In this document: in pieces, positions 1,441 through 27,745 of the stretch | Numbering within the stretch: the first letter of the stretch is position 1 | Layout of the letters: the number at the start of each line of letters is the position of its first letter | Assembly (NCBI GenBank): GCA_041476345.1 | Contig: JBGOTH010000001.1 | Coordinates: forward strand, 1-41,214 | DNA: 41,214 nt | Source: Candidatus Methylomirabilia bacterium | Lineage (GTDB): Bacteria; Methylomirabilota; Methylomirabilia; Rokubacteriales; CSP1-6 | Direction of reading: 5' to 3' | The notes under the pieces: generated by a model | Database searches by the model: none | Seen by the model: the letters and a program-made list of their open reading frames with translations, nothing else | What the model was told of the DNA's origin: nothing | Translations under genes and position numbers: made by a program

Positions 1441-1488
1441 GCGACCTGGGACTCGAGCGCCCCAACCGCCGCGGGCGCCGGCGCCCCA
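1441..1488. promoter_or_regulatory. two GC-rich dyads upstream of P1 (candidate enhancer sites)
   Basis: In minus sense, 1465-1441 reads TTGGGGCGCTCGAGTCCCAGGTCGC (GGGG-N8-TCCC+AGGT). 1473-1486 is GGGCGCCGGCGCCC, a perfect 14-nt palindrome, followed by CA. Confidence 0.45.
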
Positions 1489-1494
1489 CCACTT

Positions 1495-3636
1495 TCACTG
1501 CACCGGACCGTGGATGGCACGGAGCAGCGCGAGCGCGCGGCCGGCGAGCGAGAACGGCACACCGACGTCGAGCGTGCGTGTCTTCACGGATGGCGCGTCC
1601 TCGGCTGTGTCCACGACAACCTCCCATCCGATGCCGGGGTGCGCGTTCGGCAAGACGAAGTCGACCGCCGCCGCTCGGGCGTTGAGCAGGACCAGTAGCG
1701 TGTCGTCGGTGATCGGCTCGCCGCGGTCGTTCACGTCGTCCATCGCGAGCCCGCACAGACGAAAACCGAACGCCGTCGTGCCGGCCGCCCAGTCGGCGCC
1801 CGTCATCTCGCCGCCGTCGGGGCGGAGCCACGTGAGATCCTTCATGCCCCCGGCGCAGTCGGGACTTCCCCGGAAGAATTTCCGGCGGTGCAGCTCGGGG
1901 TGCTCGCGGCGCAGCGCGATGAGCCGCCGCGTGAAGGCGAGCCGCGCGCGCGCCTCCTCGTCGAGCGTCCAGTCGTGCCACGAGATCTCGTTGTCCTGGC
2001 AGAACGCGTTGTTGTTGCCGCGCTGAGTCCGTCCGGTCTCGTCGCCGCCGCACAGCATCGGCACACCCTGGGACAGGAACAGCGTCGCGAGCAGGGTGCG
2101 CACCTGGCGCCGCCGCAGCGCCACGATCGCGGGGTCGTCGGTCGGCCCCTCGGCGCCGAAGTTCCACGAGAAGTTCTCGTCGGCACCGTCACGGTTGCCA
2201 AGGCCGTTGGCCTCGTTGTGCTTGCGCTCGTAGCTCACGAGGTCGGCGAGGGTGAAGCCGTCGTGCGCGGTGACGAAGTTGACGCTCGCGTACGGCCGGC
2301 GGCCGTCGCTCTGATAGAGATCGCTGGAGCCGGTGAGACGGTACGCGAGCTCGGCCACCTGCCCGTCACCCCGCCAGTACCGCCGCACGGCATCGCGATA
2401 CTTGCCGTTCCATTCCGCCCATCCCACGGGGAAGTTGCCGACCTGATAGCCGCCCTCTCCGAGATCCCAGGGCTCCGCGATGAGCTTCGCCTGACCGACG
2501 ACCGGGTCCTGGTGGATGACGTCGAAGAACGCCGACAGGCGATCGACGTCGTGGAGCTGGCGCGCGAGCGCGGCGGCGAGGTCGAAGCGGAAGCCGTCGA
2601 CGTGCATCTCGAGGATCCAGTACCGGAGACTGTCCATGAGCAGCTGGAGCGTGCGCGGATGCATCATGTTGAGCGTGTTGCCGCAGCCGGTGTAATCCAC
2701 GTAGCGGCGGCGATCGGCCGGGAGGAGCCGGTAGTACGCGTCGTTGTCGATGCCCCGGAACGAGAGCGTCGGCCCGAGATGGTCGCCTTCGGCGGTGTGG
2801 TTGTAGACGACGTCGAGGATGACCTCGATGCCGGCCTGATGCAGCGTCTTCACGAGCGTCTTGAACTCGCGCACCTGCTCGCCGCGGTCGCCTCCGCTCG
2901 AGTAGCGCGCGTCGGGCGCGAAGAAGCCGATCGAGTTGTAGCCCCAGTAATTCGTGAAGCCGAGGGCTGAGACGGCGCCTTCGGTCACCGCGTGGTGCAC
3001 GGGCAGGAGCTCGACGGCCGTCACGCCGAGCGCGCGGAGATAGTCGACGGCCGCGGGGGACGCGAGCCCGGCGTACGTCCCGCGCAGTGCCGCGGGCACG
3101 CCGGGGTGGCGGGCGGTGAACCCCTTCACGTGCAGCTCGTAGATGACCGTCTCGTTCCACGGCGTCCGGAGCGGGCGGTCGCCGTTCCACGGAAACGTGG
3201 AATCCACGACCACGCTCTTCGCGACGTGCGCCGCGTCGTCGACCGGATCCGGAGCGGGATCGTCGGGCGCTCCGCGACGATAGCCGAATATCGGGGCGTC
3301 GAGCGCGGGATGACCGGCGATCGCCCTCGCGTAGGGATCGAGGAGGAGCTTGGCCGGATCGAATCGATGGCCCGTCCACGGCTCGTAGGGACCGTGCACG
3401 CGATAGCCGTAGAGGAGGCCGGGCTTCGCTTCCGGCAGATACGCGTGCCACACCTGATCGGTCCGCTCGCCGAGCGGAATCCGCGCCGTCTCCCGTGCGG
3501 ACTCCGCATCGTCGAAGAGGCACAGCTCGATCTTCGAGGCGTGCTCGCTGAAGAGCGCGAAGTTCACCCCGATTCCGTCCCACGTCGCGCCGAGCGGAAA
3601 CGGACGTCCGGGCCACGCCCGCCACGCGATCGTCAC
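1495..3636 (-). CDS. glgX: glycogen debranching enzyme GlgX (GH13 isoamylase type)
   Basis: The N-terminus has WPGRPFPLGATWDGIGVNFALFSEHA. GH13 blocks are present: DVVYNHT, GFRFDLA, EPWD, FVTAHDGF. I start it at GTG 3636, which overlaps the USP stop as GTGA, rather than at track start 3687. Confidence 0.9.
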   Translation of the reverse strand: MTIAWRAWPGRPFPLGATWDGIGVNFALFSEHASKIELCLFDDAESARETARIPLGERTDQVWHAYLPEAKPGLLYGYRVHGPYEPWTGHRFDPAKLLLDPYARAIAGHPALDAPIFGYRRGAPDDPAPDPVDDAAHVAKSVVVDSTFPWNGDRPLRTPWNETVIYELHVKGFTARHPGVPAALRGTYAGLASPAAVDYLRALGVTAVELLPVHHAVTEGAVSALGFTNYWGYNSIGFFAPDARYSSGGDRGEQVREFKTLVKTLHQAGIEVILDVVYNHTAEGDHLGPTLSFRGIDNDAYYRLLPADRRRYVDYTGCGNTLNMMHPRTLQLLMDSLRYWILEMHVDGFRFDLAAALARQLHDVDRLSAFFDVIHQDPVVGQAKLIAEPWDLGEGGYQVGNFPVGWAEWNGKYRDAVRRYWRGDGQVAELAYRLTGSSDLYQSDGRRPYASVNFVTAHDGFTLADLVSYERKHNEANGLGNRDGADENFSWNFGAEGPTDDPAIVALRRRQVRTLLATLFLSQGVPMLCGGDETGRTQRGNNNAFCQDNEISWHDWTLDEEARARLAFTRRLIALRREHPELHRRKFFRGSPDCAGGMKDLTWLRPDGGEMTGADWAAGTTAFGFRLCGLAMDDVNDRGEPITDDTLLVLLNARAAAVDFVLPNAHPGIGWEVVVDTAEDAPSVKTRTLDVGVPFSLAGRALALLRAIHGPVQ

Positions 3637-4100
3637 GCGCGGAGGGGAGCGGCGCTCGCGTGGGGTCGTACGGTGAGCACGGGGCACGCCGCCGCGCGAA
3701 CGACGCGATCGGCGACGCTGCCGAGCATGAACCGCTCGAAGCCGCCGCGACCGTGCGTGCCGATGACGATGTACGTGGCCCGTTCCTCCGCCGCCGCCCT
3801 CAGGATCTCCTCGTGAGGGACGCCGACGCGCCGGCGCCAGACCGCCTTCACGCCCTCCTTCACCAGCCGCTGCGCGCGCTCACCGAGCCTCGCCTCCGCC
3901 CAGGCCGCCTGCGTCGCGTAGAGCTTCTCGAGCTCGCCCATGCCGAACGGCGTCTCGCCGTAGAGCGGCGCTTCGACCGACACGTGCAGGAGAATCAGCC
4001 CGGCGCCGAAGCCACGCGCGAGCCGTGCGGCTTCGGCTTCCGCCGCGTCCGCTTCGACCGAAAAATCCGTGGGGTGAAGAATCGTGACCTGGTCAGTCAT
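3633..4100 (-). CDS. universal stress protein (single USP domain)
   Basis: Reads MTDQVTILHPTDFS...ILLHV...ATYIVIGTHGRGGFERFMLGSVADRVVRAAACPVLTV. The ATG at 4100 is preceded by GGAGG. The longer track ORF (to 4526) is an unsupported extension. Confidence 0.9.
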   Translation of the reverse strand: MTDQVTILHPTDFSVEADAAEAEAARLARGFGAGLILLHVSVEAPLYGETPFGMGELEKLYATQAAWAEARLGERAQRLVKEGVKAVWRRRVGVPHEEILRAAAEERATYIVIGTHGRGGFERFMLGSVADRVVRAAACPVLTVRPHASAAPLRA

Positions 4101-4129
4101 GCGCACCTCCATTGCCGTGCGGCGATGGG

Positions 4130-4146
4130 TGCACCGCCAATGCCAG
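4130..4146 (-). promoter_or_regulatory. sigma-54 promoter P2 (USP-glgX operon)
   Basis: The minus strand reads CTGGCATTGGCGGTGCA with GG-N10-GC exact. The predicted leader to the ATG at 4100 is about 19 nt and contains the SD. Confidence 0.65.
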
Positions 4147-4211
4147 ACCGTTGACCACGCAATTCCAACCATTTGAGCGCGGCCGGACCGCCGAGCCGTG
4201 TCCCAGCCGCG

Positions 4212-4240
4212 CCTCGCGTGGGGAGCCGCCACCCCAGTCG
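4212..4240. promoter_or_regulatory. GGGG-N8-CCCC dyad between divergent promoters P2 and P3
   Basis: Reads CCTCGCGTGGGGAGCCGCCACCCCAGTCG. In minus sense it is TGGGG-N8-CCCCACGCGAGG. It lies 54 bp from the P3 GG and 79 bp from the P2 GG. Confidence 0.5.
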
Positions 4241-4284
4241 GTCCGGGAACAGCCGCCTCCGCGACTTGACGCGATTGCAACGTG

Positions 4285-4300
4285 TGGCGTATGCGTTGCA
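4285..4300 (+). promoter_or_regulatory. sigma-54 promoter P3 (LOG-family gene)
   Basis: Reads TGGCGTATGCGTTGCA with GG-N10-GC exact. The leader to the ATG at 4318 would be very short (about 7 nt), which lowers confidence. Confidence 0.55.
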
Positions 4301-4317
4301 CGCGGGTCTCCACATCG

Positions 4318-5091
4318 ATGAAGGACGACAGAAGATCGATCGACACCGGCGCGGACTGGACGACCGCGGCGCATCCCGTCGAGGCCGTCCGCTTTCTCGA
4401 AGGTCCCCAATCGCGCGGCTTCGAGCTTGCCCGCGCGATCCGCATCTTCGTCGAGCTCATGCGCGGGTTCCGCGCGCTGCACTTCGTCGGGCCCTGCGTC
4501 ACCATCTTCGGCTCCGCCCGCTTCAAGGAAGACCATCCCTACTACGCGATCGCGCGCGAGGTCGGCGCCGGAGTCGCGCGCTGCGGGTTCACGGTGATGA
4601 CAGGCGGCGGGCCCGGCATCATGGAGGCGGCCAACCGGGGCGCGCGGGAGGCGGGCGGACGCTCGATCGGCTGCAACATCGAGCTGGCGCTAGAGCAGGA
4701 GCCCAACCCGTATCTCGATCGCTGGATCACCTTCCGCCACTTCTTCGTGCGCAAGCTGATGCTCGTGAAGTACTCGTACGCGTTCATCGCGCTGCCGGGA
4801 GGCTTCGGCACCCTGGACGAGATCTTCGAGACCGCCACGCTGATCCAGACCGGCAAGATCCGTGACTTCCCGCTCATCCTCGTCGGGAGGGACTTCTGGC
4901 GTCCGCTCACCGACTTCCTCCACGGCCCGCTCGAGGCCACGGCTGTCATCGATCCCGCCGACGCCGACCGCATTCGGGTCACGGACTCCGCGGCCGAGGC
5001 CGTGAGCGCCGTGCGCGACATCGCGATGCTGCGCTTCGGGCTGCACTACCCTCGCCCGCGGCGCCTCTGGTTCCTGCGCGAGCGCAGCTAG
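4318..5091 (+). CDS. LOG-family (TIGR00730) nucleotide/cytokinin riboside 5'-monophosphate phosphoribohydrolase-like protein
   Basis: Contains TIFGSARF...MTGGGPGIMEAANRGA...PGGFGTLDEIFE, the LOG PGGxGTxxE signature. The start is taken at ATG 4318. Confidence 0.85.
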   Translation: MKDDRRSIDTGADWTTAAHPVEAVRFLEGPQSRGFELARAIRIFVELMRGFRALHFVGPCVTIFGSARFKEDHPYYAIAREVGAGVARCGFTVMTGGGPGIMEAANRGAREAGGRSIGCNIELALEQEPNPYLDRWITFRHFFVRKLMLVKYSYAFIALPGGFGTLDEIFETATLIQTGKIRDFPLILVGRDFWRPLTDFLHGPLEATAVIDPADADRIRVTDSAAEAVSAVRDIAMLRFGLHYPRPRRLWFLRERS

Positions 5092-5092
5092 G

Positions 5093-5285
5093 TGGATTAT
5101 TCATGAGCGGGGCCGGGAGCGTGCCGCCTCCTGTCCTCGCCGAGGTGAGGGCGGTGGGCCGGGGTGGACGGCCGACATCCGCAGCCGCCTCGGCGAGGAC
5201 AGGAGGCCGTCTACCTCGGCCCACCGCCCTCACCTCGGCTGCGGATGTCGCCGGCACACCCCCGGCCTCGCTCATGAATAATCCA
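5093..5285. repeat. 193-bp MITE-like palindromic element filling the LOG-MFS intergenic space
   Basis: It has perfect 17-bp terminal inverted repeats: TGGATTATTCATGAGCG (5093-5109) and CGCTCATGAATAATCCA (5269-5285). The arm similarity extends to about 33 bp. The interior holds three interleaved inverted-repeat pairs in the order A B C A' B' C'. Confidence 0.6.
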
Positions 5286-5295
5286 GGCTAGCGCC

Positions 5296-6504
5296 GTGCG
5301 CCTGTCCCGCAATCTCTGGGCGGTCAGCGCGGCGAGCTTCTTCATGGACGTCGCGAGCGAGATGACGATGAACCTCGTGCCCCTTCTGCTGAGCAACGTG
5401 CTGGGCGCGAGCACCGCGGTCATCGGTCTGGTGGAAGGCGTCTCGCAGGCGACGGCGAACCTGGTTCAGGTGGGCTCGGGCTGGCTCTCCGATCGGCTGC
5501 GCGCGCGCAAGTGGCTCGCGGTCGCGGGCTATGCGCTGTCCGCCGCGTCGAAGCCGACGCTGTACGTCGCAGACACGTGGGGGCTCGTGCTCGGCGCGCG
5601 ATGGATCGATCGCGTCGGGAAGGGCGTCCGCACGGCGCCTCGGGACGCCCTCGTCGCCGACTCGACGGACCGTCAGCATCACGGCGCGGCGTTCGGGTTT
5701 CAACGCGCCGCCGACACGGCGGGGGCCGTCGTCGGTCTCGGCATCGCGCTGGCCGTGGTCGTCGCCAGCGGAGGGGCATCGGCGTCGCTCGCGCGTGGCA
5801 CGTTTCAGACGATCGCCCTCGTGAGCGTCATCCCGGCCACGCTGGCCGTGCTGTCGCTCGCGGTCGGCGCTCGTGACGTGCCGCCGCCCGCTCCCGACGC
5901 GCGCGCGGGGCCGGGTCGGCTCGACGGGTCGTTCCTCATGTTCGTCGGCATCGTGGCGATCTTCGGTCTCGGCAACGCCTCGGACGCGTTCCTCGTGCTG
6001 CGCGCGCAGGAGCGCGGGCTGCGCGTCGCGGACATCCTCCTCGCTCTCCTCGCGTTCAATGTCGTGTACGCGCTCGTGTCGGCGCCCGCGGGCGCGCTCT
6101 CCGATCGCCTCGGGCGCCGGCGCATGATCGTCGTCGGATGGCTCGTCTACGCGGCGGTGTATTTCGGGTTCGCGCTCGCCCGCGCGCCGTGGCACGTATG
6201 GCTCCTGTACCTGGTCTACGGCGCGTACTACGGCGCCACGTACGGCGTCCTCAAGGCGGCGATCGCGGATCTCGTGCCGGTCGAGCGGCGCGCCACCGCG
6301 TACGGCGTTTACAACACGACCGTCGCGATGGCCAACCTCGCCGCCTCGCTCGTCGCGGGTGTGCTGTGGCAAGGCGTGGGAAGCTGGCCAGGCTTCGGGC
6401 CCTCGGCGCCGTTCCTCTTCGGCGGCACGCTGGCGCTGGCCGCGGCAATCCTTCTGAGCCTCGTACCGACGTGGCCCGACGCGCGCCGAGCGGACATGAT
6501 GTAA
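5296..6504 (+). CDS. MFS transporter
   Basis: 402 aa with about 12 predicted hydrophobic helices and the MFS loop motif GWLSDRLRARK. It is a paralog of the minus-strand MFS at 37636-38829 (similar N-termini). Confidence 0.85.
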   Translation: MRLSRNLWAVSAASFFMDVASEMTMNLVPLLLSNVLGASTAVIGLVEGVSQATANLVQVGSGWLSDRLRARKWLAVAGYALSAASKPTLYVADTWGLVLGARWIDRVGKGVRTAPRDALVADSTDRQHHGAAFGFQRAADTAGAVVGLGIALAVVVASGGASASLARGTFQTIALVSVIPATLAVLSLAVGARDVPPPAPDARAGPGRLDGSFLMFVGIVAIFGLGNASDAFLVLRAQERGLRVADILLALLAFNVVYALVSAPAGALSDRLGRRRMIVVGWLVYAAVYFGFALARAPWHVWLLYLVYGAYYGATYGVLKAAIADLVPVERRATAYGVYNTTVAMANLAASLVAGVLWQGVGSWPGFGPSAPFLFGGTLALAAAILLSLVPTWPDARRADMM

Positions 6505-6517
6505 AGATCGGTGCGCT

Positions 6518-6548
6518 TGGGGGCGGCGGCGCCCCAGGTGAGGTAGCC
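6518..6548. promoter_or_regulatory. GGGG-N8-CCCC+AGGTGAGG dyad upstream of P4
   Basis: Reads TGGGGGCGGCGGCGCCCCAGGTGAGGTAGCC. The CCCC starts 88 bp upstream of the P4 GG. Confidence 0.5.
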
Positions 6549-6619
6549 ACGCCGCTATTCATCGCGCGCTCGGCGCGCGCGCATCCCTCATCTGCGCGAT
6601 TTGTCTCTCGAAGCGCCGG

Positions 6620-6634
6620 GGTATGCCCATTGCA
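6620..6634 (+). promoter_or_regulatory. sigma-54 promoter P4 (Leu/Glu-type dehydrogenase)
   Basis: Reads GGTATGCCCATTGCA with GG-N10-GC exact. The -12 TTGCA is perfect; the -24 is weaker (GGTAT). Confidence 0.55.
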
Positions 6635-6682
6635 TCCGATCCGGCGTATGGGGCTCGACTCTGACCTGAGCGTGCGCGGACG

Positions 6683-7804
6683 ATGAGCCTCGACGACGTT
6701 TTCGACGTTGCGGACGAGCTCGGTCCCTCGAAGATCATCCACGTCAGCGAGCCGACACTCGGGCTCAAAGCGGTGCTGGTCGTCGACAACGTCGCGCGCG
6801 GCCCGTCGATTGGCGGCCTTCGGATGGCGCCTGACGTGAGCACGACCGAGTGCGTCCGTCTCGCGCGGGCGATGACGCTGAAGAACGCCGCCGCCAACCT
6901 GCCTCACGGCGGCGGCAAGTCAGTGCTCTACGGCGACCCGCGCATGCCGCGCGACCGGAAGGAGCGCCTCATTCGCGGGTTCGCGCACGCCCTCCGGAAC
7001 GAGACGGACTACATCTTCGGTCCCGACATGGGCACCGACGAGGCGTGCATGGCGTGGGTCGAGGACGAGATCGGCCGCGCCGTCGGCCTGCCGGCCGCGC
7101 TCGGCGGCATTCCGCTCGACGAGATCGGGGCAACCGGCTGGGGCGTCCTCCACGCGGTGGAGACCGCGGCGTCCCATTGCAGGTTCGACCTCAAGGGCGC
7201 GCGCGTGGTGATCCAGGGCTTCGGGGCCGTCGGCAAGCACAGCGCGCGATTCCTGGTCGAACGCGGCGCGGTGCTCGTCGCGGCATCGGATTCTCGAGGG
7301 ACGATCTACGACCCAGGCGGGATTCGCGTGGCGGAGCTGATCGCGCTGAAGGCCGCCGGCGGCGCCGTCGGAGACTATGCGAGCGGCGGCGAGAAGCTCG
7401 ATCGCGATGCGGTGCTCGATGTGGAATGTGAGATCTGGATCCCTGCCGCCCGCCCCGATGTGGTGCGCGAGGACAACGTGGACCGTTTGAAGACCAGGCT
7501 GGTCGTCCAGGGCGCCAATATTCCATTCACGCCGGGCGCGGAGAAGATGCTGCACGACCGGGGCGTCCTGGTGATTCCCGATTTCATCGCGAACGCCGGC
7601 GGCGTCATCTGCGCCGCGATGGAGTACCACGGCGCGACGCAATCGGCGGCCTTCGCCGCGATCGAGGAGAGAACCCGCGCGAATACCACGGCGGTCCTCG
7701 ACGCGATGAAGGCCGAGAACGTCACGCCGCGTCGGGCCGCGCTCGATCTGGCGACCGCGCGCGTCAGAGAGGCGATGAGCTACCGCCGTTTCTCGATCTC
7801 CTGA
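6683..7804 (+). CDS. Glu/Leu/Phe/Val dehydrogenase family protein (LeuDH/ValDH-sized)
   Basis: 373 aa with GPSIGGLRM, the catalytic-Lys box LPHGGGKSV and the Rossmann motif IQGFGAVGK. Confidence 0.85.
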   Translation: MSLDDVFDVADELGPSKIIHVSEPTLGLKAVLVVDNVARGPSIGGLRMAPDVSTTECVRLARAMTLKNAAANLPHGGGKSVLYGDPRMPRDRKERLIRGFAHALRNETDYIFGPDMGTDEACMAWVEDEIGRAVGLPAALGGIPLDEIGATGWGVLHAVETAASHCRFDLKGARVVIQGFGAVGKHSARFLVERGAVLVAASDSRGTIYDPGGIRVAELIALKAAGGAVGDYASGGEKLDRDAVLDVECEIWIPAARPDVVREDNVDRLKTRLVVQGANIPFTPGAEKMLHDRGVLVIPDFIANAGGVICAAMEYHGATQSAAFAAIEERTRANTTAVLDAMKAENVTPRRAALDLATARVREAMSYRRFSIS

Positions 7805-7814
7805 CGCTACTCGC

Positions 7815-7840
7815 TGGGGCGCGGCGACCCCACGTGAGAC
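7815..7840. promoter_or_regulatory. GGGG-N8-CCCC+ACGTGAGAC dyad upstream of P5
   Basis: Reads TGGGGCGCGGCGACCCCACGTGAGAC. The CCCC starts 100 bp upstream of the P5 GG. A near-identical copy is at 12301-12326. Confidence 0.5.
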
Positions 7841-7926
7841 GTGCACGCAGCACTCGCACGGCTCGGCGTTGTCGCCGTTTCCAGCTCGCACCAAGCAATT
7901 TCGCGGAATTGCCCCGCTCGACTGAT

Positions 7927-7942
7927 TGGCATTGACGATGCA
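7927..7942 (+). promoter_or_regulatory. sigma-54 promoter P5 (PRTase-esterase operon)
   Basis: Reads TGGCATTGACGATGCA with GG-N10-GC exact. The SD AAGGGGGG and the TTG/GTG start at 7969/7972 follow. Confidence 0.65.
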
Positions 7943-7968
7943 CCCATTCCCAGGCGAAAGGGGGGATC

Positions 7969-8631
7969 TTGGTGCGTACCTTCCGCGACCGGCGACAGGC
8001 TGGGCAACTCCTCGCCGCGCATCTCGGCGCTTACGCAGGACGAGATGACGTGATCGTGCTCGCGTTGCCACGGGGTGGCGTTCCGGTTGCGTTCGAAATC
8101 GCCCGTGCGCTCCACGCCCCCCTCGACGTGTTCACGGTGCGCAAGCTCGGCGTGCCGGGCCACGAGGAATGGGGATTCGGTGCCATCGCAACGGGCGGTG
8201 TCAGAGTCCTCGATGACGACCTGGTCGACAGGCTCGGGTTACCCGTGCGCGTCATCGAACACATCACCGACCTCGAGCGTCGTGAGCTCGGACGACGTGA
8301 GCGCGCCTACCGCGGTGATCGACCGGCGCCCGCGGTGACCGGGAAGACAGTCATCGTCGTCGACGACGGGTTGGCGACGGGCGCGTCCATGCGCGCCGCC
8401 GTGCGGGCGCTGCGAGCGCTGCGACCGGCCGCGATCGTCGTGGCCGTACCCACGGGCGCCCGTGAGACGTGCCAGACGCTGCGGTCGGAGGTCGAGGCCC
8501 TCATCTGCGTCTCGATGCCCGAGCCGTTCTACGCCGTCGGATCGCAGTATCGCGACTTTCAGCCGACATCGGACGAGGAGGTGTGTCAGCTGCTCGCCGC
8601 CGCTCGGGACCAGGCGGCCGTTTCCGCATGA
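7969..8631 (+). CDS. phosphoribosyltransferase-family protein
   Basis: Contains F-RDRRQAG..LA..L...VLALPRGGVPVAFEIA and the PRPP loop VIVVDDGLATGAS. This type is commonly paired or fused with a dienelactone hydrolase. Confidence 0.85.
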   Translation: MVRTFRDRRQAGQLLAAHLGAYAGRDDVIVLALPRGGVPVAFEIARALHAPLDVFTVRKLGVPGHEEWGFGAIATGGVRVLDDDLVDRLGLPVRVIEHITDLERRELGRRERAYRGDRPAPAVTGKTVIVVDDGLATGASMRAAVRALRALRPAAIVVAVPTGARETCQTLRSEVEALICVSMPEPFYAVGSQYRDFQPTSDEEVCQLLAAARDQAAVSA

Positions 8632-9974
8632 CGACGAACGGCGAGGACCTCGCGGCGTCCGTGCGGCAGGTCGCCCGGCCGCTCGCGGGGACGCCGCGTG
8701 ATTTCGACCCCGTCATCGCCGCCGTCGATCGCGCGCGCTTCGTCCTCATCGGCGAGGCCTCGCACGGGACGCACGAGTTCTACCGCATCCGCGCCGAGAT
8801 CACGAAGCGGCTCATCCGCGAGTGCGGCTTCGAGGCGGTCGCCGTCGAGGCGGACTGGCCGGATGCCTACCGGATCAACCGGTATGTGCGCGGCGCCGGC
8901 ACGGATCACGATGCGATCGAGGCCCTCGACGACTTCAAGCGCTTTCCTCACTGGATGTGGCGTAACGCCGACGTGCTGGACTTCGTGGGCTGGCTGCGTG
9001 AGCACGACGACGCGTGCACGGATGATGCCCGGAAGGTCGGCTTCTACGGTCTCGACCTCTACAGCCTTCACGCCTCGATGGAGGCGGTGGTCCGTTACCT
9101 CCGGGTCGTCGATCCCGACGCCGCGCGCCGCGCGCAGTCCCGGTACGCGTGCTTCGACCACTTCGGCGGCGACGTCGAGACCTACGCCCGGACGGCGGGG
9201 TTGGGACTCGCCGCGTCGTGCGAGCGCGAGGTGGTGAGCCAGCTCGTCGATCTCCGGCGCTCCGCGTCCGACTACGCGCGCCGCGATGGGCGTGTGGCCG
9301 CGGACGATCTCTTCGTGGCCGAGCAGAATGCGCGCCTGGTGAAGAACGCCGAGGCGTACTACCGCACGATGTTCGGGGGCCACGTCGCGTCGTGGAATCT
9401 CCGCGACCGGCACATGGTCGAGACCCTGGAAGCGCTCGCCGAGCACGTGCAGGCAGCGCGTGGACGGCCCGCGAAGATCGTGGTGTGGGCGCACAACTCG
9501 CATCTCGGCGACGCCCGCGCCACCGAGCTCGGTCAGCGTGGCGAGTTGAACGTGGGTCAGCTCGTGCGTGAGCGCTACGGTCGCGAAGCGCTCCTCGTCG
9601 GCTTCACGACCAACGAAGGCACGGTGACCGCGGCGTCCGACTGGGGCGAGCCCGCCGAGCGCAAGACGGTGCGACCGGCCTTGCCCGGCAGCTACGAATC
9701 CATCTTCCACGCCGTGGGCCTGGGGAACTTCGCGCTGGACCTGCGCCATCACGGTCTCGCGAGCTCAGCGCTGGCGTCGCCACGACTCGAGCGCGCGATT
9801 GGTGTCGTGTACCGGCCGGAGACGGAGCGGCAGAGCCACTACTTCGACGCCGTGCTCCCGCGCCAGTTCGATCTGGTTTTACACTACGACCACACGCGCG
9901 CCGTCGAGCCGCTCGAGCGCACGGCCCAGTGGGAACGCGGCGAGTTGCCGGAAACATATCCGTCCTCGCTGTGA
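8628..9974 (+). CDS. erythromycin esterase-like (PF05139-type) protein
   Basis: The start is taken at ATG 8628 (ATGA overlap with the PRTase stop). Contains FVLIGEASHGTHEFY...AVEADWPD...VVWAHNSHLGD. Confidence 0.8.
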   Translation: MTTNGEDLAASVRQVARPLAGTPRDFDPVIAAVDRARFVLIGEASHGTHEFYRIRAEITKRLIRECGFEAVAVEADWPDAYRINRYVRGAGTDHDAIEALDDFKRFPHWMWRNADVLDFVGWLREHDDACTDDARKVGFYGLDLYSLHASMEAVVRYLRVVDPDAARRAQSRYACFDHFGGDVETYARTAGLGLAASCEREVVSQLVDLRRSASDYARRDGRVAADDLFVAEQNARLVKNAEAYYRTMFGGHVASWNLRDRHMVETLEALAEHVQAARGRPAKIVVWAHNSHLGDARATELGQRGELNVGQLVRERYGREALLVGFTTNEGTVTAASDWGEPAERKTVRPALPGSYESIFHAVGLGNFALDLRHHGLASSALASPRLERAIGVVYRPETERQSHYFDAVLPRQFDLVLHYDHTRAVEPLERTAQWERGELPETYPSSL

Positions 9975-9981
9975 CGCGACG

Positions 9982-10071
9982 ATGAATTCCCTCGCGATCC
10001 CCTTGGGAGAATGTCACAGGTGATCGCGGCATCGTCCTGTTCGCTCACGGCAGCGGCAGCAGCCGCTTGAG
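9982..10071 (+). pseudogene. dienelactone-hydrolase gene remnant (5' scrap only)
   Basis: 10022-10071 matches the intact DLH gene at 12766-12815 in 48 of 50 nt (encoding GDRGIVLFAHGSGSSRL). The stop/start junction 9963-9985 matches 12654-12676 in 21 of 23 nt. The ATG at 9982 runs into a stop at 10021-10023, and about 53 nt are missing relative to the intact copy. Nothing DLH-like follows 10071. Confidence 0.8.
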
Positions 10072-10368
10072 GAGCGCGCGCCGACGCTGCACATCGACCC
10101 GGATGCGCTTGGCTTCGCGCTCGGCACGCCGTTCCAGCGCGGCCGCCGGCGCCTGGCTCAGCTCGGCCGCTCCCCGCCCGCGCGATGTCCCATGGAGCGC
10201 CCGCGCACATCAGCACACGAGTGCGGCGATCAGGGATCTTCGTCGTACTGGCGTTTTCATGGCGCCCACGAACGTACCGGACGAAGAAGGAGGACCGCGT
10301 ACGGTGACACTGCCGCGCCGTGAGGCGATCCGCACCGGCTCTCCTTCCCAGATCCGGCCTGCGGTTCA

Positions 10369-10785
10369 TCATCGACCGTTCTCCTTGGTGAACGTTCCGC
10401 CGGGAAGATCCGTCACGGTGATCTTCAGCGCGACCATCCGCGCGCCCTCGTTGCGGCACTCGATGGTGACGTAGTCCCCGACGTAGACTCCGGAGCGATC
10501 GAGCGGCGCTTCGACGAACTCGCCGGGGAATCCTTCCCCGGTGTCCTCGACCCGGAACGCGATGGCACATTCCGTCCGTGTCGTGAGCGCGATCCTTGGG
10601 CGCGTGACGACCGTGGCGCCGTCGTGAATCCGCCACGGCCCGACCTCCGCGAGCACGATCGAGTCGGTGTTCTCGTCGTCGTCCACGATGGTGCCGGAAT
10701 GCTTCACGATCTCGGCGCGCGCGGACACGGTGACGGTCAGCAGCAACGTGAGGGTCATACCGAGCACGAGTGCATGTGAGCGCAT
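10369..10785 (-). CDS. secreted hypothetical protein (signal peptide)
   Basis: The N-terminus MRSHALVLGMTLTLLLTVTVSARA is signal-peptide-like. Composition is non-Arg-rich and protein-like. It is last in the minus-strand operon after DUF2267. Confidence 0.65.
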   Translation of the reverse strand: MRSHALVLGMTLTLLLTVTVSARAEIVKHSGTIVDDDENTDSIVLAEVGPWRIHDGATVVTRPRIALTTRTECAIAFRVEDTGEGFPGEFVEAPLDRSGVYVGDYVTIECRNEGARMVALKITVTDLPGGTFTKENGR

Positions 10786-10800
10786 CGTCGTCGTCCTTCC

Positions 10801-11330: not shown

Positions 11331-11370
11331 CGCGTTCCCTCCTTCTCCGTGATGACTCCGGTTCGAGATC

Positions 11371-11385
11371 GCAACGGCGATGCCA
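11371..11385 (-). promoter_or_regulatory. sigma-54 promoter P6 (39-aa ORF/DUF2267/secreted protein operon)
   Basis: The minus strand reads (C)TGGCATCGCCGTTGC(G) with GG-N10-GC exact. The leader is about 29 nt. Confidence 0.65.
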
Positions 11386-11436
11386 GACCCGGCCCGAGCG
11401 AAATCACACCGTTGGGCGGACCCGTGCGCGTTCGGT

Positions 11437-11458
11437 GAGGCACGCGTGCCCCAGTGCG
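11437..11458. promoter_or_regulatory. degenerate dyad (GAGG-N8-CCCC+AGTGCG) near P6
   Basis: Reads GAGGCACGCGTGCCCCAGTGCG and lies 56 bp from the P6 GG. A CCTCAC word at about 11470 forms an inverted repeat with GTGAGG at 11435-11440. Confidence 0.35.
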
Positions 11459-11500
11459 GCAGCGTCACCTCACGCTCAAGAGTCGCGCGGACATGAAAGA

Positions 11501-11530
11501 GGTGAAGCTCACCCCAGGTGAGGCAGCCAC
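11501..11530. promoter_or_regulatory. CCCCAGGTGAGGCAGCCAC element upstream of P7 (left half replaced by GGTGA-AGC-TCACC)
   Basis: Reads GGTGAAGCTCACCCCAGGTGAGGCAGCCAC. The CCCC starts 88 bp upstream of the P7 GG. It is collinear with the P4 copy at a constant offset of 4980 nt. Confidence 0.45.
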
Positions 11531-11598
11531 GCCGCTGGTGATCGCGCCGTCGACGCGGGGCGTCTTCTCATCTGCGCGATTTGTCTCACGCGGCACCC

Positions 11599-11614
11599 AG
11601 GCAGGCCTGTTGCA
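11599..11614 (+). promoter_or_regulatory. sigma-54 promoter P7 (CDF-like transporter)
   Basis: Reads AGGCAGGCCTGTTGCA with GG-N10-GC exact. The leader to the ATG at 11644 is about 19 nt. Confidence 0.6.
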
Positions 11615-12300: not shown

Positions 12301-12326
12301 TGGGGCGCAATGACCCCACGTGAGAC
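12301..12326. promoter_or_regulatory. GGGG-N8-CCCC+ACGTGAGAC dyad upstream of P8
   Basis: Reads TGGGGCGCAATGACCCCACGTGAGAC. The CCCC starts 98 bp upstream of the P8 GG. It is a duplicate of 7815-7840. Confidence 0.5.
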
Positions 12327-12410: not shown

Positions 12411-12426
12411 TGGCATTAACGATGCA
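12411..12426 (+). promoter_or_regulatory. sigma-54 promoter P8 (DLH / Cys-rich / FAAL / MFS operon)
   Basis: Reads TGGCATTAACGATGCA, 15 of 16 nt identical to P5, with GG-N10-GC exact. The SD AAGGGGG and the ATG at 12454 follow. Confidence 0.65.
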
Positions 12427-17811: not shown

Positions 17812-17867
17812 TGCTGCGCACCATTTCCGCGGCGGCGGTCGGCCAGCGCGGCCCGGGATGGTGCGGC

Positions 17868-17907
17868 GACGCCTCACCCGGGGCAACCGTGCCCCGGGTG
17901 AGGCGTC
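17868..17907. promoter_or_regulatory. perfect 40-nt palindrome: full-symmetry version of the regulon dyad and/or intrinsic terminator stem
   Basis: Reads GACGCCTCACCCGGGG-CAACCGTG-CCCCGGGTGAGGCGTC, with 16-bp perfect arms and an 8-nt centre. It lies 57 nt after the MFS stop and 58 bp upstream of the P11 GG. No T-tract follows. Confidence 0.55.
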
Positions 17908-17948: not shown

Positions 17949-17964
17949 CGGTCTCGCTCTTGCT
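17949..17964 (+). promoter_or_regulatory. possible sigma-54 promoter P11 (CBS-fragment/Cys-rich/baeRF1/tdh/kbl/ATPase operon)
   Basis: Reads CGGTCTCGCTCTTGCT with GG-N10-GC exact and a perfect -12 TTGCT, but the -24 has only the GG. The leader to the ATG at 17995 is about 20 nt and carries a GGGAG SD. Confidence 0.35.
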
Positions 17965-18257: not shown

Positions 18258-18270
18258 AGAGAGGATACGG

Positions 18271-19440
18271 ATGAGCGACACAGGGGCCGGCACGGCCGCA
18301 TCGACGACGTTCGACATCGCCGCCAAGCTCCAGCAACTCGCGCGGCTGGCACCGGGGCGAGCGCCGGTGATCAGCGTCTATCTCGATACGCGCTGGACCG
18401 ACGAGCATCAACGCGAGCGCGTGCGTGTCTTCCTGAAGAACGAGACGCGCAAGGCCGCCGCCATGGCCGCCGGTCGACTCGAGGACGAGCTCGCGTGGAT
18501 CGCCGCGCAGGGCGAGCGGCTCGTTCGCCAGGAGTTCCATCCCGACGCGGCCGGCGTGGCGATGTTCGTCGGAGGGTCGGGAGATATGCGCGAGATCCTA
18601 TCCTTCGCCGTCCCGTTCACCGACACATTCACGATGGCCGATATCCCGCGGTTGCGGCCGCTGGTGGCCGCGCTCGGCGAGGCGCCGCGGGCGGCCGTGC
18701 TGTTCGTCGACGGTGAGAGCGCACGTGTCATCGCGTTGACCGAGCAAGGCGCCGCGGATGAGATCGCGTTGGAGACGACCGACGTGATCGGTCAGCATCG
18801 CCGCGGCGGCTGGCTGCTGCTCCTGCAGTCGCGCTACCAGCGCCACATCCACGAACTCCGCAAGCGTCACTTCGACGCCGTGGCCGATGCGCTTGCCGCC
18901 GCCGTCGACCACTACGGTCTTCGGGCCATCGTGCTCGCCGGTGAGGCGCGGAACCTCGCCGTCTTCCGGACACAAGTCCCGCCGCGGCTGGCGGGACGGA
19001 TCGTCGGCAACGTGGCGGGCGCGCGCTACGAGCCCTCGAGCGTGCTCGCAGAGCGCGCGCTTGCGCTGATCCGGCACCGGAACGCCGGCGAAGAGGCAGC
19101 GGCTCTCGACTCCGTCCTGGTCGACGCGGAAGGAGGCGGACGCGCGTCCGCCGGCGTCGATGCCACGGTCGACGCCGTCAACCGCGGCACGGTCGATCGT
19201 CTCTATCTGCTGCAGACCTACGAGGAGGATGGGCGAGTGTGCTCCCGTTGCCACGCGCTCCAGCGTGCCGCGACGGCCGTCTGCCAATGGTGCAGCGCCG
19301 TGACGAATCCGATGGAGCTCGGTGAAGCGATGGTCCGGTGCGTCCTTGCCGCCGACGGCGACGTCGCGAGCGTGGACGGGCACGAGGGGCTCGCGCGCGT
19401 AGGAGGCGTGGCGGCGCTCCTCCGCTACCCGCCTCGCTGA
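18271..19440 (+). CDS. bacterial eRF1-like protein (baeRF1 / Vms1-like peptidyl-tRNA hydrolase superfamily) with C-terminal zinc ribbon
   Basis: 389 aa from ATG 18271 (SD GAGAGGA). It has a central IGQHRRGGW....SRYQR block like the hkqGGwSq.RyqR motif of bacterial aeRF1 homologs. CSRC...CQWC forms a zinc ribbon near the C-terminus. Confidence 0.6.
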   Translation: MSDTGAGTAASTTFDIAAKLQQLARLAPGRAPVISVYLDTRWTDEHQRERVRVFLKNETRKAAAMAAGRLEDELAWIAAQGERLVRQEFHPDAAGVAMFVGGSGDMREILSFAVPFTDTFTMADIPRLRPLVAALGEAPRAAVLFVDGESARVIALTEQGAADEIALETTDVIGQHRRGGWLLLLQSRYQRHIHELRKRHFDAVADALAAAVDHYGLRAIVLAGEARNLAVFRTQVPPRLAGRIVGNVAGARYEPSSVLAERALALIRHRNAGEEAAALDSVLVDAEGGGRASAGVDATVDAVNRGTVDRLYLLQTYEEDGRVCSRCHALQRAATAVCQWCSAVTNPMELGEAMVRCVLAADGDVASVDGHEGLARVGGVAALLRYPPR

Positions 19441-19457
19441 CGGGAATCTGATCCGCG

Positions 19458-20510
19458 ATGGCGCGCAGACCCGTAGCCCTGGTGACGGGCGCCGGCGGCG
19501 AGATGGGACATGCGCTCGTGCGCTGCCTCGCCCGGACGGGCGATGTCGACGTCCTCGCCCTCGACGTTCGCGCGCTCGATCCGGAGCTCGCCCGCCATTG
19601 CGTCGCCGTGCGAGTCGGCGACATCCTCGATCGGCGTCTGCTCGACCGGCTCACGAGCGAGTTCGAGATCGCCACGATCTTCCATCTCGCCGCGCTGCTG
19701 TCGACCCGCGCCGAGTTCGTGCCCGAAACCGCGCACGAGGTAAACGTGGATGGAACGCTGAACCTGCTGCGGCTCGCCGTCGAGGAGGCGCGCGCGCTGG
19801 GGCGTCCGGTGACGTTCCTCTTCCCCAGCTCGATCGCCGTCTACGGCCTGCCTGACGTGCCGACCAAGCGTGCGGTGGGCCGAGTGGGCGAGCACGAGTG
19901 GACGACGCCCGTCACCATGTACGGCTGCAACAAGCTCTACTGCGAGCACCTGGGCCGCTACTTCGGTCGTCACTACCGCCAGCTCGCGCCCCAGGCCGGG
20001 CCGAGCGGCGTCGACTTCCGCGCGATCCGCTTCCCGGGACTCATTTCGGCCTTCACCATGCCGAGCGGCGGCACCAGCGACTACGCGCCGGAGATGATCC
20101 ACGCCGCGGCCCAGGGCCGGCCTTACACCTGCTTCGTGCGGGCCGACACCCGGATTCCGTTCATGGCGATGCCGGACGCGATCGACGCGCTCCTGACCCT
20201 GCTGCGGGCACCGGCGGCATCGCTGACGAGCGCCGTGTACAACGTGACGGGATTCTCTGCGAGCGCGGGTGAGCTGGCCGATCTCGTGCGCGAGGCGTTT
20301 CCCGGAGCGCGAATCACGTTCGCGCCCGATCCCCGCCGTCAGGCCATCGTCGATTCCTGGCCCCAAGATGTGGACGACGCGCGTGCGCGCCGCGACTGGG
20401 GCTTTCGGGCCGCGCACGACCTCCAGCGCACGTTCGACGAGTACCTTCTCCCGAACGTCAGGCGCCGATATGCCGCGGCGGGCGTCGAGAGGGATTCAAA
20501 GGAGGCATGA
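19458..20510 (+). CDS. tdh: L-threonine 3-dehydrogenase (GalE-like extended SDR type)
   Basis: Contains the TGAGGEMG Rossmann motif, catalytic YGCNK, the DSWP motif, and [11 protein letters not shown]. It overlaps kbl as ATGA. Confidence 0.8.
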
Positions 20511-25410: not shown

Positions 25411-25830
25411 TCACTCGTCGGCGAGCGACTCCCGTAGCGCCTCCAACACGTCGACATAGCTCACGATGCCGATCAGTTCACCGGTCTCGGGTCTGACGAC
25501 GGGAACCGCGCCCACGCGGTGCTCGATCAGGAGGTCGACCACTTCACCGAGCCCCGTCTCGGGATTGACGGCGACGACATCGGTGCTCATGACCTTCACG
25601 ACCGGGGTGCTGAGCTCGCGGCGAAGCGCCTCGGCTCCGTCAACCGTGAGGAGAGGCACCATGTCGAAGTGGGCGAGGTCGCGGTCGCTCAGCATGCCGA
25701 CGAGGGTGCCGCCGTCGAGCACGGGCACGTGTCGGATCGCCCGCACGCGCATGAGGTCCCAGACTTCGGCAACGGTCGCATCGGGGCTCACGAACACCGG
25801 ATTCGGCGTCATCAGATCTTGCGCGCTCAC
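25411..25830 (-). CDS. CBS-domain pair protein
   Basis: Two CBS repeats: DLMTPNPVFVSPDATVAEVWDLM...IRHVPVLD and VMSTDVVAVNPETGLGEVVDLL...GAVPVV. The GTG at 25830 is preceded by AAGGAGGAG; the longer track ORF is not supported. Confidence 0.85.
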   Translation of the reverse strand: MSAQDLMTPNPVFVSPDATVAEVWDLMRVRAIRHVPVLDGGTLVGMLSDRDLAHFDMVPLLTVDGAEALRRELSTPVVKVMSTDVVAVNPETGLGEVVDLLIEHRVGAVPVVRPETGELIGIVSYVDVLEALRESLADE

Positions 25831-25893: not shown

Positions 25894-25909
25894 TGCAACA
25901 CGAGTGCCG
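25894..25909 (-). promoter_or_regulatory. sigma-54 promoter P9 (CBS-PNPOx operon)
   Basis: The minus strand reads CGGCACTCGTGTTGCA, near-consensus GGCAC-N5-TTGCA. The leader is about 53 nt. Confidence 0.7.
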
Positions 25910-25997
25910 ATCGCGAACTCGCGGATTTGCTCGAATTCCGACGGATCGCTGCGGGAGATCGCCGTCGCGATGGGGCGACGCGGGGACACCTGGGAAC

Positions 25998-26020
25998 GGG
26001 GCGCCCCGCCCGGTGAGCGC
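25998..26020. promoter_or_regulatory. GGGG-N8-CC+GGTGAGCGC dyad upstream of P9
   Basis: Reads GGGGCGCCCCGCCCGGTGAGCGC, with CACCTGGG at 25987-25994 as a possible opposite half. It lies about 93 bp from the P9 GG and abuts the DASS stop codon. Confidence 0.4.
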
Positions 26021-27496: not shown

Positions 27497-27594
27497 AGTG
27501 ACCTCCTTCGGGAAGCCGGTGCCGGAGTGCACTGAGCGTCGGTATTGGAGAGAAGGGCCCGAGGGGCCAAGTTCGACGACGCAAAGAAGGTACA

Positions 27595-27638
27595 GCTTCC
27601 CGCCCGAGATTCTTACCAATTCGACCGCAGCGGGAAGC
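27595..27638. repeat. 9-bp inverted repeat with AT-richer 26-nt loop in the 400-bp divergent intergenic region
   Basis: GCTTCCCGC (27595-27603) pairs with GCGGGAAGC (27630-27638). The loop is CCGAGATTCTTACCAATTCGACCGCA. Function unknown. Confidence 0.3.
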
Positions 27639-27717
27639 GCGGCCTCGGACGCCCGCCACCCCTCCAGCGACACGCTCGCCCGGCTGCCTATTTCCGCTGT
27701 GGTCTTGACGACCGGGG

Positions 27718-27745
27718 TGGGGCAGCAGGAGGACACGTGAGGCGG
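27718..27745. promoter_or_regulatory. TGGGG-N8-GGAC+ACGTGAGGCGG element upstream of P10
   Basis: Reads TGGGGCAGCAGGAGGACACGTGAGGCGG. The right CCCC is replaced by GGAC but the ACGTGAGG tail is conserved. It lies 122 bp upstream of the P10 GG. Confidence 0.4.

Follow-up and report, generated by a model that had tools for sequence, protein, structure and literature searches.

NtrC at glnAp2 binds dyads as dimers, with at least two sites on one helix face about 100-140 bp upstream of the -24/-12 promoter, and activates by looping; the upstream activating sequence (UAS) of a bacterial enhancer-binding protein (bEBP) typically lies 70-200 bp from the start site. In oxygen sensing, FixL passes its signal to FixJ, which is of the LuxR type and acts at sigma-70 promoters. 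In Myxococcus xanthus, the NtrC-like regulator NmpR activates sigma-54 promoters from two palindromic upstream copies; hypoxia induces its regulon, to which CBS-domain, universal stress and P-type ATPase genes belong, and a haem-based kinase signals to it via a multi-kinase relay (McAllister et al. 2025, PMC11841059). DevR (DosR) recognizes the Dev box, an 18-20 bp palindrome TTSGGGACTWWAGTCCCSAA in which G5 and C7 of each half are essential; its listed targets include Rv2623/Rv1996, Rv2626c, ctpF and hspX, and boxes are shared between divergent genes (Chauhan et al. 2011, PMC3177182). Here, we analysed a stretch of 41,214 nucleotides (the window; contig JBGOTH010000001.1, assembly GCA_041476345.1) from a Candidatus Methylomirabilia bacterium, in which an initial annotation had noticed a GC-rich dyad, GGGG-N8-CCCC, upstream of almost every sigma-54 promoter and had proposed it as an enhancer site. 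From sequence comparison, we consider it probable that this dyad is the enhancer of one NtrC-family bEBP which would switch on a sigma-54 hypoxia/dormancy stress regulon in this bacterium. The closest known system of this kind is NmpRSTU of Myxococcus, with a different DNA site.

Confinement of the dyad to sigma-54 promoter regions

The window has a GC content of 66-74% and contains five copies of GGGG-N8-CCCC, all of them intergenic, compared to 1.2 expected; the highest count in 100 shuffles was 4. The copies quoted in the initial annotation were all found in place, at 4219-4240, 6518-6543, 7815-7840 and 12301-12326 and as a 40-nt palindrome at 17868-17907, and so were the degenerate copies at 1441-1465 (minus strand), 11437-11458, 11509-11523, 25998-26017 and 27718-27742. 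Independently of that annotation, we recovered 11 intergenic sigma-54 (-24/-12) promoters in nine intergenic regions of the window, where the pattern TGGC-N8-TGC occurs 15 times versus 7.1 expected. The suspected co-occurrence of dyad and promoter was borne out among the 16 intergenic regions of at least 50 bp: a dyad with at most one mismatch was present in 8/9 regions with a sigma-54 promoter and in 0/7 regions without (Fisher p = 7e-4), and the ninth promoter-bearing region (27497-27898) holds a degenerate copy. A position weight matrix (PWM) built from the dyad copies gave a single weak coding match in the window (13.1 bits at 19803).

The same dyad emerged from an enumeration of all 4-mer inverted dyads with spacings of 0-14 (3840 tested), in which 29 regions upstream of sigma-54 promoters, taken from the window and from six related loci, were compared with 1738 background windows. 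GGGG-N8-CCCC ranked first, with 13/29 foreground versus 4/1738 background regions (p = 6e-22), and the dyads ranked next, TGGG-N10-CCCA, GGGC-N6-GCCC and GGCA-N4-TGCC, were only nested parts of the same palindrome. Allowing up to two mismatches in 12 positions, the 18-bp version of the dyad was found in 22/29 promoter regions and in 16/1738 background windows (p = 1.5e-34). The loci L097-L100 had been fetched solely by homology of their BON protein and are therefore independent of the motif; there, the exact dyad occurred in 4/13 regions compared to 4/900, and the dyad with at most one mismatch in 10/13 compared to 86/900 (p = 2e-8).

Scanning 185,579 species genomes for motif plus promoter pattern returned 11 stretches, which is about the chance expectation. 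Two of them (L006 and L014), both from metagenome-assembled genomes (MAGs) of Methylomirabilota, are genuine. The other nine, from Actinobacteria and Chloroflexota, look like chance matches, as most of them lie in coding-like sequence and Actinobacteria, to our knowledge, lack sigma-54. A metagenome scan with the phosphoribosyltransferase protein yielded 80 loci (53-65% identity, mostly 55-57% GC) with no dyad upstream and no PWM match of at least 17 bits in 519 kb; these loci probably belong to other phyla and serve as a negative control.

To follow the dyad between genomes, close relatives were of little use. A look-up of the universal stress protein (USP) returned near-identical strains alone (99.5-99.9% identity), which are useless for footprinting, and an exact look-up of the BON protein gave no match. 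One of the near-identical sequences, contig JBGPVB010000008.1 of MAG GCA_041491405.1 (L001), matches the window at 99.5% identity across 10.9 kb, and none of the 20 point differences falls within a dyad or a -24/-12 element. In more distant loci, dyad and promoter were kept while the flanks had diverged, both in the orthologous phosphoribosyltransferase promoter (window and L006) and in the orthologous BON promoter (window, L097 and L098). Dyad and promoter were likewise kept at the tandem-USP promoter (window and L100), and at the USP-operon promoter of L102, L103, L104 and L105 the dyad centre lies 82.5-83.5 bp from the -24 G in 4/4 cases. The position of the dyad relative to the promoter is thus maintained among genomes whose proteins are 55-75% identical. 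One BON homologue was labelled Methylomirabilota by its source; together with the two genuine scan matches and two homologues of the candidate activator (see below) that bear this label too, it suggests that the window belongs to high-GC Methylomirabilota of the Rokubacteria type.

Anatomy and helical phasing of the sites

Aligning 26 sites showed that the full element is an 18-bp palindrome, TGGGGCR-N4-YGCCCCA, with the detailed consensus (T/c)GGGGC(G/a)-N4-(c/t)G(C/t)CCC(A/g). Position 7 is a purine in 26/26 sites and never C. In the following, scores of n/12 give the matched positions among 12 of the 18-bp dyad, and distances run from the dyad centre to the first -24 G.

The motif had originally been written with a tail, (A/G)(G/C)GTGAG. 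The tail is real, but it does not belong to a single motif or directional element; for the most part it is the half-site TGAGGC of a neighbouring site. It consists of a 2-bp linker followed by TGAGGC, a variant left half-site that begins exactly 20 bp past the start of the primary site. The half-site TGRGGC at +20 accompanies 10/21 primary dyads (p = 1.6e-14), and its mirror GCCYCA (GCCTCA) stands at -7/-8 on the distal side of 5/21 (p = 4e-6). A separate directional GTGAG element was dropped in favour of this adjacent half-site, whose orientation is not always promoter-proximal (L097 5706+, L100 7866+). At least nine promoters hold a full second dyad (at least 9/12) at a distance of 19-24 bp, compared to about 0.5 expected as estimated from the per-position rate; examples are 1396-, 11384-, 17950+ and 25908- in the window, L097 1031+, L098 3523+ and 4421+, L100 7866+ and L103 11624+. 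For the USP-operon promoter, aligning the four genomes showed conservation of the second site in both of its halves.

Measured from the first C of CCCC to the -24 G, 10 of the 11 distances listed initially were reproduced (54, 55, 56, 58, 79, 88, 88, 98, 100 and 122); for the promoter at 25908(-) we obtained 87 instead of 93, due to a different register. The dyad centres are 58.5-106.5 bp away from the -24 G (outliers reach 155.5), which corresponds to roughly -85 to -130 relative to the transcription start. The distances fall into classes near 59-64, 70-72, 81-85, 91-93 and 102-107 bp and are in helical phase (Rayleigh R = 0.63-0.65 at 10.5-10.7 bp; 0/5000 permutations as strong). As orthologous promoters are not independent, the significance is optimistic; the motif-independent subset showed the same phasing (R = 0.71-0.75, p = 0.002-0.004). 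Where divergent promoters share one dyad, the geometry is similar in two genomes, with centres at 58.5 and 83.5 bp in the window (4219) and at 64.5 and 84.5 bp in L014 (Hsp20/GroEL). Conserved blocks also occur between dyad and promoter, one resembling GTTTTC in the USP operon and one reading GACTTC at the BON promoter; both could be bending sites.

A predicted mechanism can be drawn from this arrangement. One bEBP dimer would bind the strong palindrome TGGGGCR-N4-YGCCCCA and cooperatively recruit a second dimer to the weaker site, the centre of which is offset by about 20 bp, or two helical turns, and whose near half would be the GTGAG tail. With both sites on one face of the helix, about 60, 70, 82, 92 or 104 bp from the -24 GG and hence in the -85 to -130 range, the assembled ATPase ring would loop to the closed sigma-54 holoenzyme and open it, and bending may be aided by the conserved T-rich or GACTTC block that separates site and promoter.

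Likely sensor, candidate activator and alternative readings

At the edge of the window (1..322, minus strand), the 5' part of a gene for a FixL-like haem-PAS histidine kinase was identified (Pfam PAS), which runs past the window edge. The best PDB matches of its PAS domain are the haem-PAS domains of FixL and DosP, with the proximal histidine aligned, and this kinase is likely the oxygen sensor of the system. The full-length orthologue (PAS-HisKA-HATPase) is found in L097, a BON locus with 74% identity, in which the gene order is GlgX, BON, haem-PAS kinase (419 aa), receiver (149 aa), receiver-PAS-kinase hybrid (491 aa), archease, RtcB and CBS genes. The signal would probably come from the FixL-like haem-PAS kinase by way of the receiver protein and the hybrid kinase, as in the NmpRSTU relay of Myxococcus.

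A candidate for the activator came from four genomes with dyad-bearing DNA (L099/L102, L103, L104 and L105-L107). In these, a PAS kinase and a receiver-AAA+-HTH_8 (NtrC-family) protein of 462-465 aa are encoded immediately or one gene upstream of a USP operon, USP-USP-(lipoate ligase)-USP, whose sigma-54 promoter carries the dyad. Its conservation across many metagenomic proteins is 70-82%, and two of these carry source labels of Methylomirabilota/Methylomirabilis. The protein scored below all NCBIfam equivalog cut-offs and is therefore uncharacterized. In L099, its gene, the haem-PAS kinase and the BON/CBS/baeRF genes reside within one 20-kb island. Based on this neighbourhood, the receiver-AAA+-HTH_8 protein is our leading, if tentative, candidate for the protein that binds the dyad.

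A Crp/Fnr-family gene is divergent from the PAS-kinase/bEBP pair in L105 (7568-8341), L106 (1946-2719) and L107 (62-856), and pyruvate:ferredoxin oxidoreductase and radical-SAM genes lie 3' of the USP operon in the L105-L107 loci. These neighbours fit an anaerobic or hypoxic theme.

The dyad may also be an enhancer served by another activator than the kinase-adjacent NtrC-type protein of L099 and L103-L105, such as a PAS- or GAF-fused NifA-like bEBP or a partner of the hybrid kinase. This is possible, although we regard it as rather unlikely. It would account for the haem-PAS kinase, receiver and hybrid kinase lacking an adjacent bEBP in the window and in L097, for the candidate having a different PAS kinase (about 547 aa) of its own, and for the dyads beside the candidate gene being among the weaker copies (9-10/12). 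However, the candidate adjoins a dyad-bearing promoter in four genomes and shares the L099 island with the haem-PAS kinase, and no other bEBP gene was seen in the fetched neighbourhoods.

The initial proposal that the dyad is a bEBP enhancer is supported: promoter association, dyad symmetry, phasing and conservation in orthologues all turned out as expected of such a site, and second sites in register were seen at part of the promoters. Several points weigh against this reading or narrow it. The background used for the enrichment was coding DNA for the most part, and orthologous and paralogous promoters are not independent of each other, which inflates the statistics for both phasing and enrichment. 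The statement that almost every sigma-54 promoter has a dyad holds within this gene island but not beyond, as L100 4346+ is a related sigma-54 promoter without one. Similarly, no G4-N8-C4 dyad accompanies the sigma-54 promoters from which L101, a relative with 54% GC, drives Hsp20 and CBS-BON. Weak sites also occur (27718, 25991). Across the pooled promoters, GCCYCA at +32, the far half of the second site, shows no enrichment, and many promoters may hold one and a half sites alone; the predicted two-dimer architecture is thus supported but not general. No bEBP gene lies in the window, and no orthologue of the candidate was located in this genome. Finally, as Rokubacteria-type genomes are expected to carry many bEBPs, the adjacency of the candidate in four genomes is suggestive only.

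Another explanation is that the dyad is bound by a protein other than a bEBP, for example a DosR/NarL-type response regulator or a repressor or anti-activator, which modulates the sigma-54 promoters while the bEBP acts from elsewhere or is not involved. The outer positions and the spacing do agree with those of the Dev (DosR) box T-S-GGG-N8-CCC-S-A, the genes parallel those of the DosR regulon, and DevR promoters likewise combine an 18-bp primary box with a weak, helically phased secondary box at a distance of 21 bp (PMC3177182). In addition, the Crp/Fnr-type gene adjoins the kinase-bEBP pair in L105-L107. Nevertheless, the C7 reported to be essential for DevR binding (PMC3177182) is never present at position 7 in the 26 sites. 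The DosR core GGGAC-N4-GTCCC was found in 0/29 regions at up to one mismatch, and no GerE/LuxR-type gene occurs in any fetched neighbourhood. Sigma-54 promoters moreover require an AAA+ activator, a phased location at -85 to -130 is usual for a UAS and not for a repressor or a class II activator, and no other enriched dyad that could serve as the real UAS emerged from the enumeration. We therefore consider a binder outside the bEBP class improbable.

The copies could, in addition, be hairpins at the transcript level, either terminators or RNA-stabilizing stem-loops at the 3' ends of the upstream genes, with the promoter nearby only by coincidence. Six of the nine sites are indeed located 10-60 nt past the stop codon of a co-directional gene, the palindrome at 17868-17907 would fold into a stem of 18 bp (-57.9 kcal/mol, z = -6.4), and the segment 12283-12340 folds better than its shuffled versions (z = -2.5). 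The remaining 7/9 segments fold no better than shuffles (z -0.7 to +1.05), and in the copies from divergent regions the minimum-energy fold leaves the dyad unused. T tracts are missing, and the only overlapping hairpin flagged by a terminator scan, at 11499-11515(-), is within a divergent region. Three sites lie between divergent genes, where there is nothing to terminate. In most copies the N4 centre is not self-complementary, yet the spacing is fixed, and a helical phase with the downstream promoter would not be expected of a 3'-end hairpin. Rfam covariance models, run on the whole window at gathering thresholds, gave no match. Altogether, a role as hairpins appears very improbable.

A dispersed repeat of the REP or MITE type (repetitive extragenic palindrome or miniature inverted-repeat transposable element) that piled up in these intergenic regions has even less to recommend it and is highly implausible: the copies are many GC-rich intergenic palindromes, a genuine MITE-like inverted repeat lies nearby (5093-5285) and the promoter regions at 6532-6607 and 11512-11587 are partly paralogous, but just 18-38 bp are common to the copies and their flanks are unrelated, none of the 7 intergenic regions without a sigma-54 promoter contains one, and position relative to the promoter is kept, with phased spacing, between genomes with 55-75% identical proteins.

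Predicted target operons and comparison with known systems

The predicted promoters of the window and their sites are arranged as follows; domain names are Pfam assignments. The BON-domain gene (657-1352) is driven by the sigma-54 promoter TGGCAACGCCGTTGCA (1382..1397, minus strand), which is kept in the L097 and L098 orthologues. Its primary dyad TGGGGCGCTCGAGTCCCA (1447..1464, minus strand; 11/12) is centred 59.5 bp from the -24 G, the orthologous dyad of L097 at 60.5 bp, and the second dyad TGGGGCGCCGGCGCCCGC (1471..1488, minus strand; 10/12) lies 24 bp upstream of the primary one. Next, two divergent promoters share the dyad TGGGGAGCCGCCACCCCA (4219..4236), which has no gene upstream to terminate: TGGCATTGGCGGTGCA (4130..4145, minus strand; centre at 83.5 bp) drives the USP (3633-4100) and GlgX (1495-3627) genes, and TGGCGTATGCGTTGCA (4285..4300, plus strand; centre at 58.5 bp) drives the LOG-family gene and the MFS gene. 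The MITE-like element at 5093-5285 lies between these two genes and is a long inverted repeat with 81-nt arms that are 83% complementary and separated by 31 nt; its termini are GGATTATTCATGAGCG and CGCTCATGAATAATCC, and it is unrelated to the dyad.

Upstream of the glutamate dehydrogenase gene (6683-7804), the dyad GGGGGCGGCGGCGCCCCA is followed by GG and the half-site TGAGGT (6519..6544, plus strand), and its centre is 92.5 bp from the -24 G of promoter GGGTATGCCCATTGCA (6619..6634, plus strand). Between this promoter and the start codon, L001 lacks 29 nt (window 6653-6681). The phosphoribosyltransferase and erythromycin-esterase genes are driven from TGGCATTGACGATGCA (7927..7942, plus strand) with the dyad TGGGGCGCGGCGACCCCA, CG and half-site TGAGAC (7815..7840, plus strand) centred at 104.5 bp; the L006 orthologue of this dyad, TGGGGCGGACTGACCCCACGTGAGAC, is centred at 106.5 bp. 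In the gap 3' of the erythromycin-esterase gene (9975-10368), 50 nt at 10022-10071 are 96% identical to 12766-12815, the start of the dienelactone-hydrolase gene. This segment looks like a remnant of a second copy of the hydrolase gene and recalls the phosphoribosyltransferase-hydrolase and esterase-phosphoribosyltransferase fusions of Rv0571c and Rv2030c.

In the following divergent region, TGGCATCGCCGTTGCG (11370..11385, minus strand) drives a small open reading frame (ORF), a DUF2267 gene and a lipoprotein-like gene, and at 11436..11472 the dyad TGGGGCACGCGTGCCTCA (read on the minus strand; 11/12) is centred at 60.5 bp and an adjacent weaker dyad (9/12) at 79.5 bp. In the other direction, the cation-efflux gene (11644-12282) is driven from AGGCAGGCCTGTTGCA (11599..11614, plus strand); here, the half-palindrome CTCACCCCA, GG and the weak dyad TGAGGCAGCCACGCCGCT (11505..11536, plus strand; 9/12, centre at 72.5 bp) are paralogous to 6532-6556. 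The promoter regions of the glutamate dehydrogenase and cation-efflux genes share two blocks, at 6532-6556/11512-11536 and 6587-6607/11567-11587; the first reads CCCCAGGTGAGG(T/C)AGCCACGCCGCT and the second, 12 bp upstream of the -24 element, CTCATCTGCGCGATTTGTCTC. This likeness suggests either a promoter duplication or an extra conserved element, e.g. a site for a bending protein.

Further downstream, the dyad TGGGGCGCAATGACCCCA with CG and half-site TGAGAC (12301..12326, plus strand) is centred 102.5 bp from the -24 G of TGGCATTAACGATGCA (12411..12426, plus strand), which drives a small ORF and the dienelactone hydrolase, acyl-CoA synthetase/acyltransferase and ATG22 genes. The array TGGTGCGGCGACGCCTCA (10/12), CC, CGGGGCAACCGTGCCCCG (10/12), GG and TGAGGC at 17859..17904 (plus strand) forms the perfect 40-nt palindrome 17868-17907 (core 17870-17905). 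The centre of CGGGGCAACCGTGCCCCG is 62.5 bp from the -24 G of the weaker sigma-54 promoter CGGTCTCGCTCTTGCT (17949..17964, plus strand), which drives small ORFs and genes for baeRF (eRF1-like), threonine dehydrogenase, KBL and a P-type ATPase. Within these two operons, two small paralogous Cys-rich ORFs (13344-13625 and 18105-18257) share the pattern CGHPERAH.G.GRCRVPDCPCER.EPGDT. The former has no Pfam match and was also called as a gene in L001; by the look of their sequence, the pair possibly encodes zinc-ribbon proteins.

The CBS-pair protein (25411-25830) and the PNPOx-like protein are expressed from CGGCACTCGTGTTGCA (25894..25909, minus strand), upstream of which two 9/12 dyads, CGGGGCGCCCCGTTCCCA (centre at 91.5 bp) and TGTCCCCGCGTCGCCCCA (71.5 bp), lie 20 bp apart (25971..26008, minus strand). 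The last promoter, TGGCACCGCCCTTGCC (27852..27867, plus strand), drives the tandem-USP gene (27899-28951) and a giant ORF; its sites are a degenerate pair, TGGGGCAGCAGGAGGACA, CG and TGAGGCGGGAGTGCCCGC (27718..27755, plus strand; the latter 9/12 and centred at 106.5 bp), and the L100 orthologue GGGGCAGCCGAGGGACAGGTGAGGCGCAGACGCCCGG shares the deviation. The giant ORF (2792 aa, 28984-37362), directly 3' of the tandem-USP gene, combines Glycoamylase, GH94 supersandwich and GH94 catalytic domains and is a predicted cyclic beta-1,2-glucan synthase-like protein; in L100, a GH94 gene is found about 6 kb downstream of the tandem USP. Pfam also identified MFS transporters and a DASS transporter in the window, and the related loci add Hsp20, GroEL, RtcB with archease and an S30AE hibernation factor. 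In L101, Hsp20 and CBS-BON are divergent, and CGCAGGTGAGG and CGCAGGATGAGA (within 7558-7700) each face their own promoter; they may represent the site as it has diverged in a distant lineage.

Methylomirabilota of the Rokubacteria type are abundant in soil and uncultured, and their regulation is almost unstudied; in the literature, we found nothing on this motif or on a sigma-54 stress regulon in Methylomirabilota/Rokubacteria. The present analysis supplies a concrete predicted regulon, with an 18-bp enhancer, a promoter geometry, a likely haem-PAS sensor, a candidate activator family and a list of operons (USP, CBS, BON, Hsp20/GroEL, hibernation factor, RtcB, glycogen debranching, P-type ATPase and others). 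The motif is directly usable for annotating hypoxia/dormancy regulons in MAGs.

How does this predicted system relate to those already described? The window-edge kinase is like FixL in that its haem-PAS domain is most similar to the FixL haem domains, with the proximal histidine motif aligned. In contrast to FixL-FixJ, a stand-alone receiver and a hybrid kinase are encoded beside it, and the promoters are predicted to depend on sigma-54. With NtrC, the system shares dyad sites at enhancer distance upstream of a -24/-12 promoter. However, the sites are 20 bp apart instead of about 32 bp, and both sequence and physiological role differ; in agreement with the initial view that this is not an NtrC site, the NtrC box TGCACC-N5-GGTGCA was found in 0/29 regions at up to three mismatches.

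The likeness to DosR, initially described as loose, has more substance than thought with respect to spacing and regulon content, but the base essential for DosR binding is absent. As in the Dev box, 8 bp separate GGG from CCC within a palindrome of 18 bp, and as in DevR promoters, a strong primary and a weak secondary box stand 20-21 bp apart in helical phase, and boxes are common to divergent genes. The genes here include USPs, a CBS protein, a P-type ATPase and Hsp20, which we take to be the classes of Rv2623/Rv1996, Rv2626c, ctpF and hspX, respectively. Further presumed parallels are the phosphoribosyltransferase, erythromycin esterase and dienelactone hydrolase (Rv2030c/Rv0571c-like), baeRF (Rv2629-like), the PNPOx-like protein, RtcB and the S30AE hibernation factor. 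Conversely, the Dev half-site is GGGAC with C7 and the one found here is GGGGCR; as position 7 is never C, the element fails as a Dev box. Furthermore, DosR is a NarL-type regulator acting at about -42 of sigma-70-type promoters, whereas the sites described here lie at about -85 to -130 of sigma-54 promoters. No sigma-70-like promoter was found in window 1-20000, and no GerE-domain/NarL-type gene in any fetched neighbourhood. That an ancestral dormancy regulon and its outer operator were rewired between DosR/sigma-70 and bEBP/sigma-54 circuits, or that a DosR-like DNA-binding specificity acts at these sigma-54 promoters, is a speculation to which we give little credence. If true, an entire regulon would have switched its sigma factor and activator class and yet retained the architecture of its cis-elements, which has rarely been documented.

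The NmpRSTU system of Myxococcus comes closest. The order of kinase, receiver and hybrid kinase (nmpU-nmpT-nmpS) equals that in L097. The DNA site differs, being GCGCA-N5-TGCGC in Myxococcus and TGGGGCR-N4-YGCCCCA here, and the gap between paired sites is 14-15 bp in Myxococcus compared to about 2 bp here (20 bp centre to centre). The NmpR box itself is not enriched in the 29 promoter regions, with 0/29 exact matches, 1/29 at one mismatch and 9/29 at two mismatches versus 388/1738 in the background (p = 0.18). The sensor NmpU is a protoglobin, whereas a FixL-type haem-PAS domain is found here, and the NtrC-like candidate occurs elsewhere with its own kinase. The regulon is also much larger and DosR-like, and no cbb3 oxidase or hemN was seen. 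A gene set closely resembling that of DosR, a dormancy regulon of clinical importance, would be placed under sigma-54 in another phylum, which would extend the hypoxia regulon described recently for Myxococcus NmpR to a new lineage with a different site.

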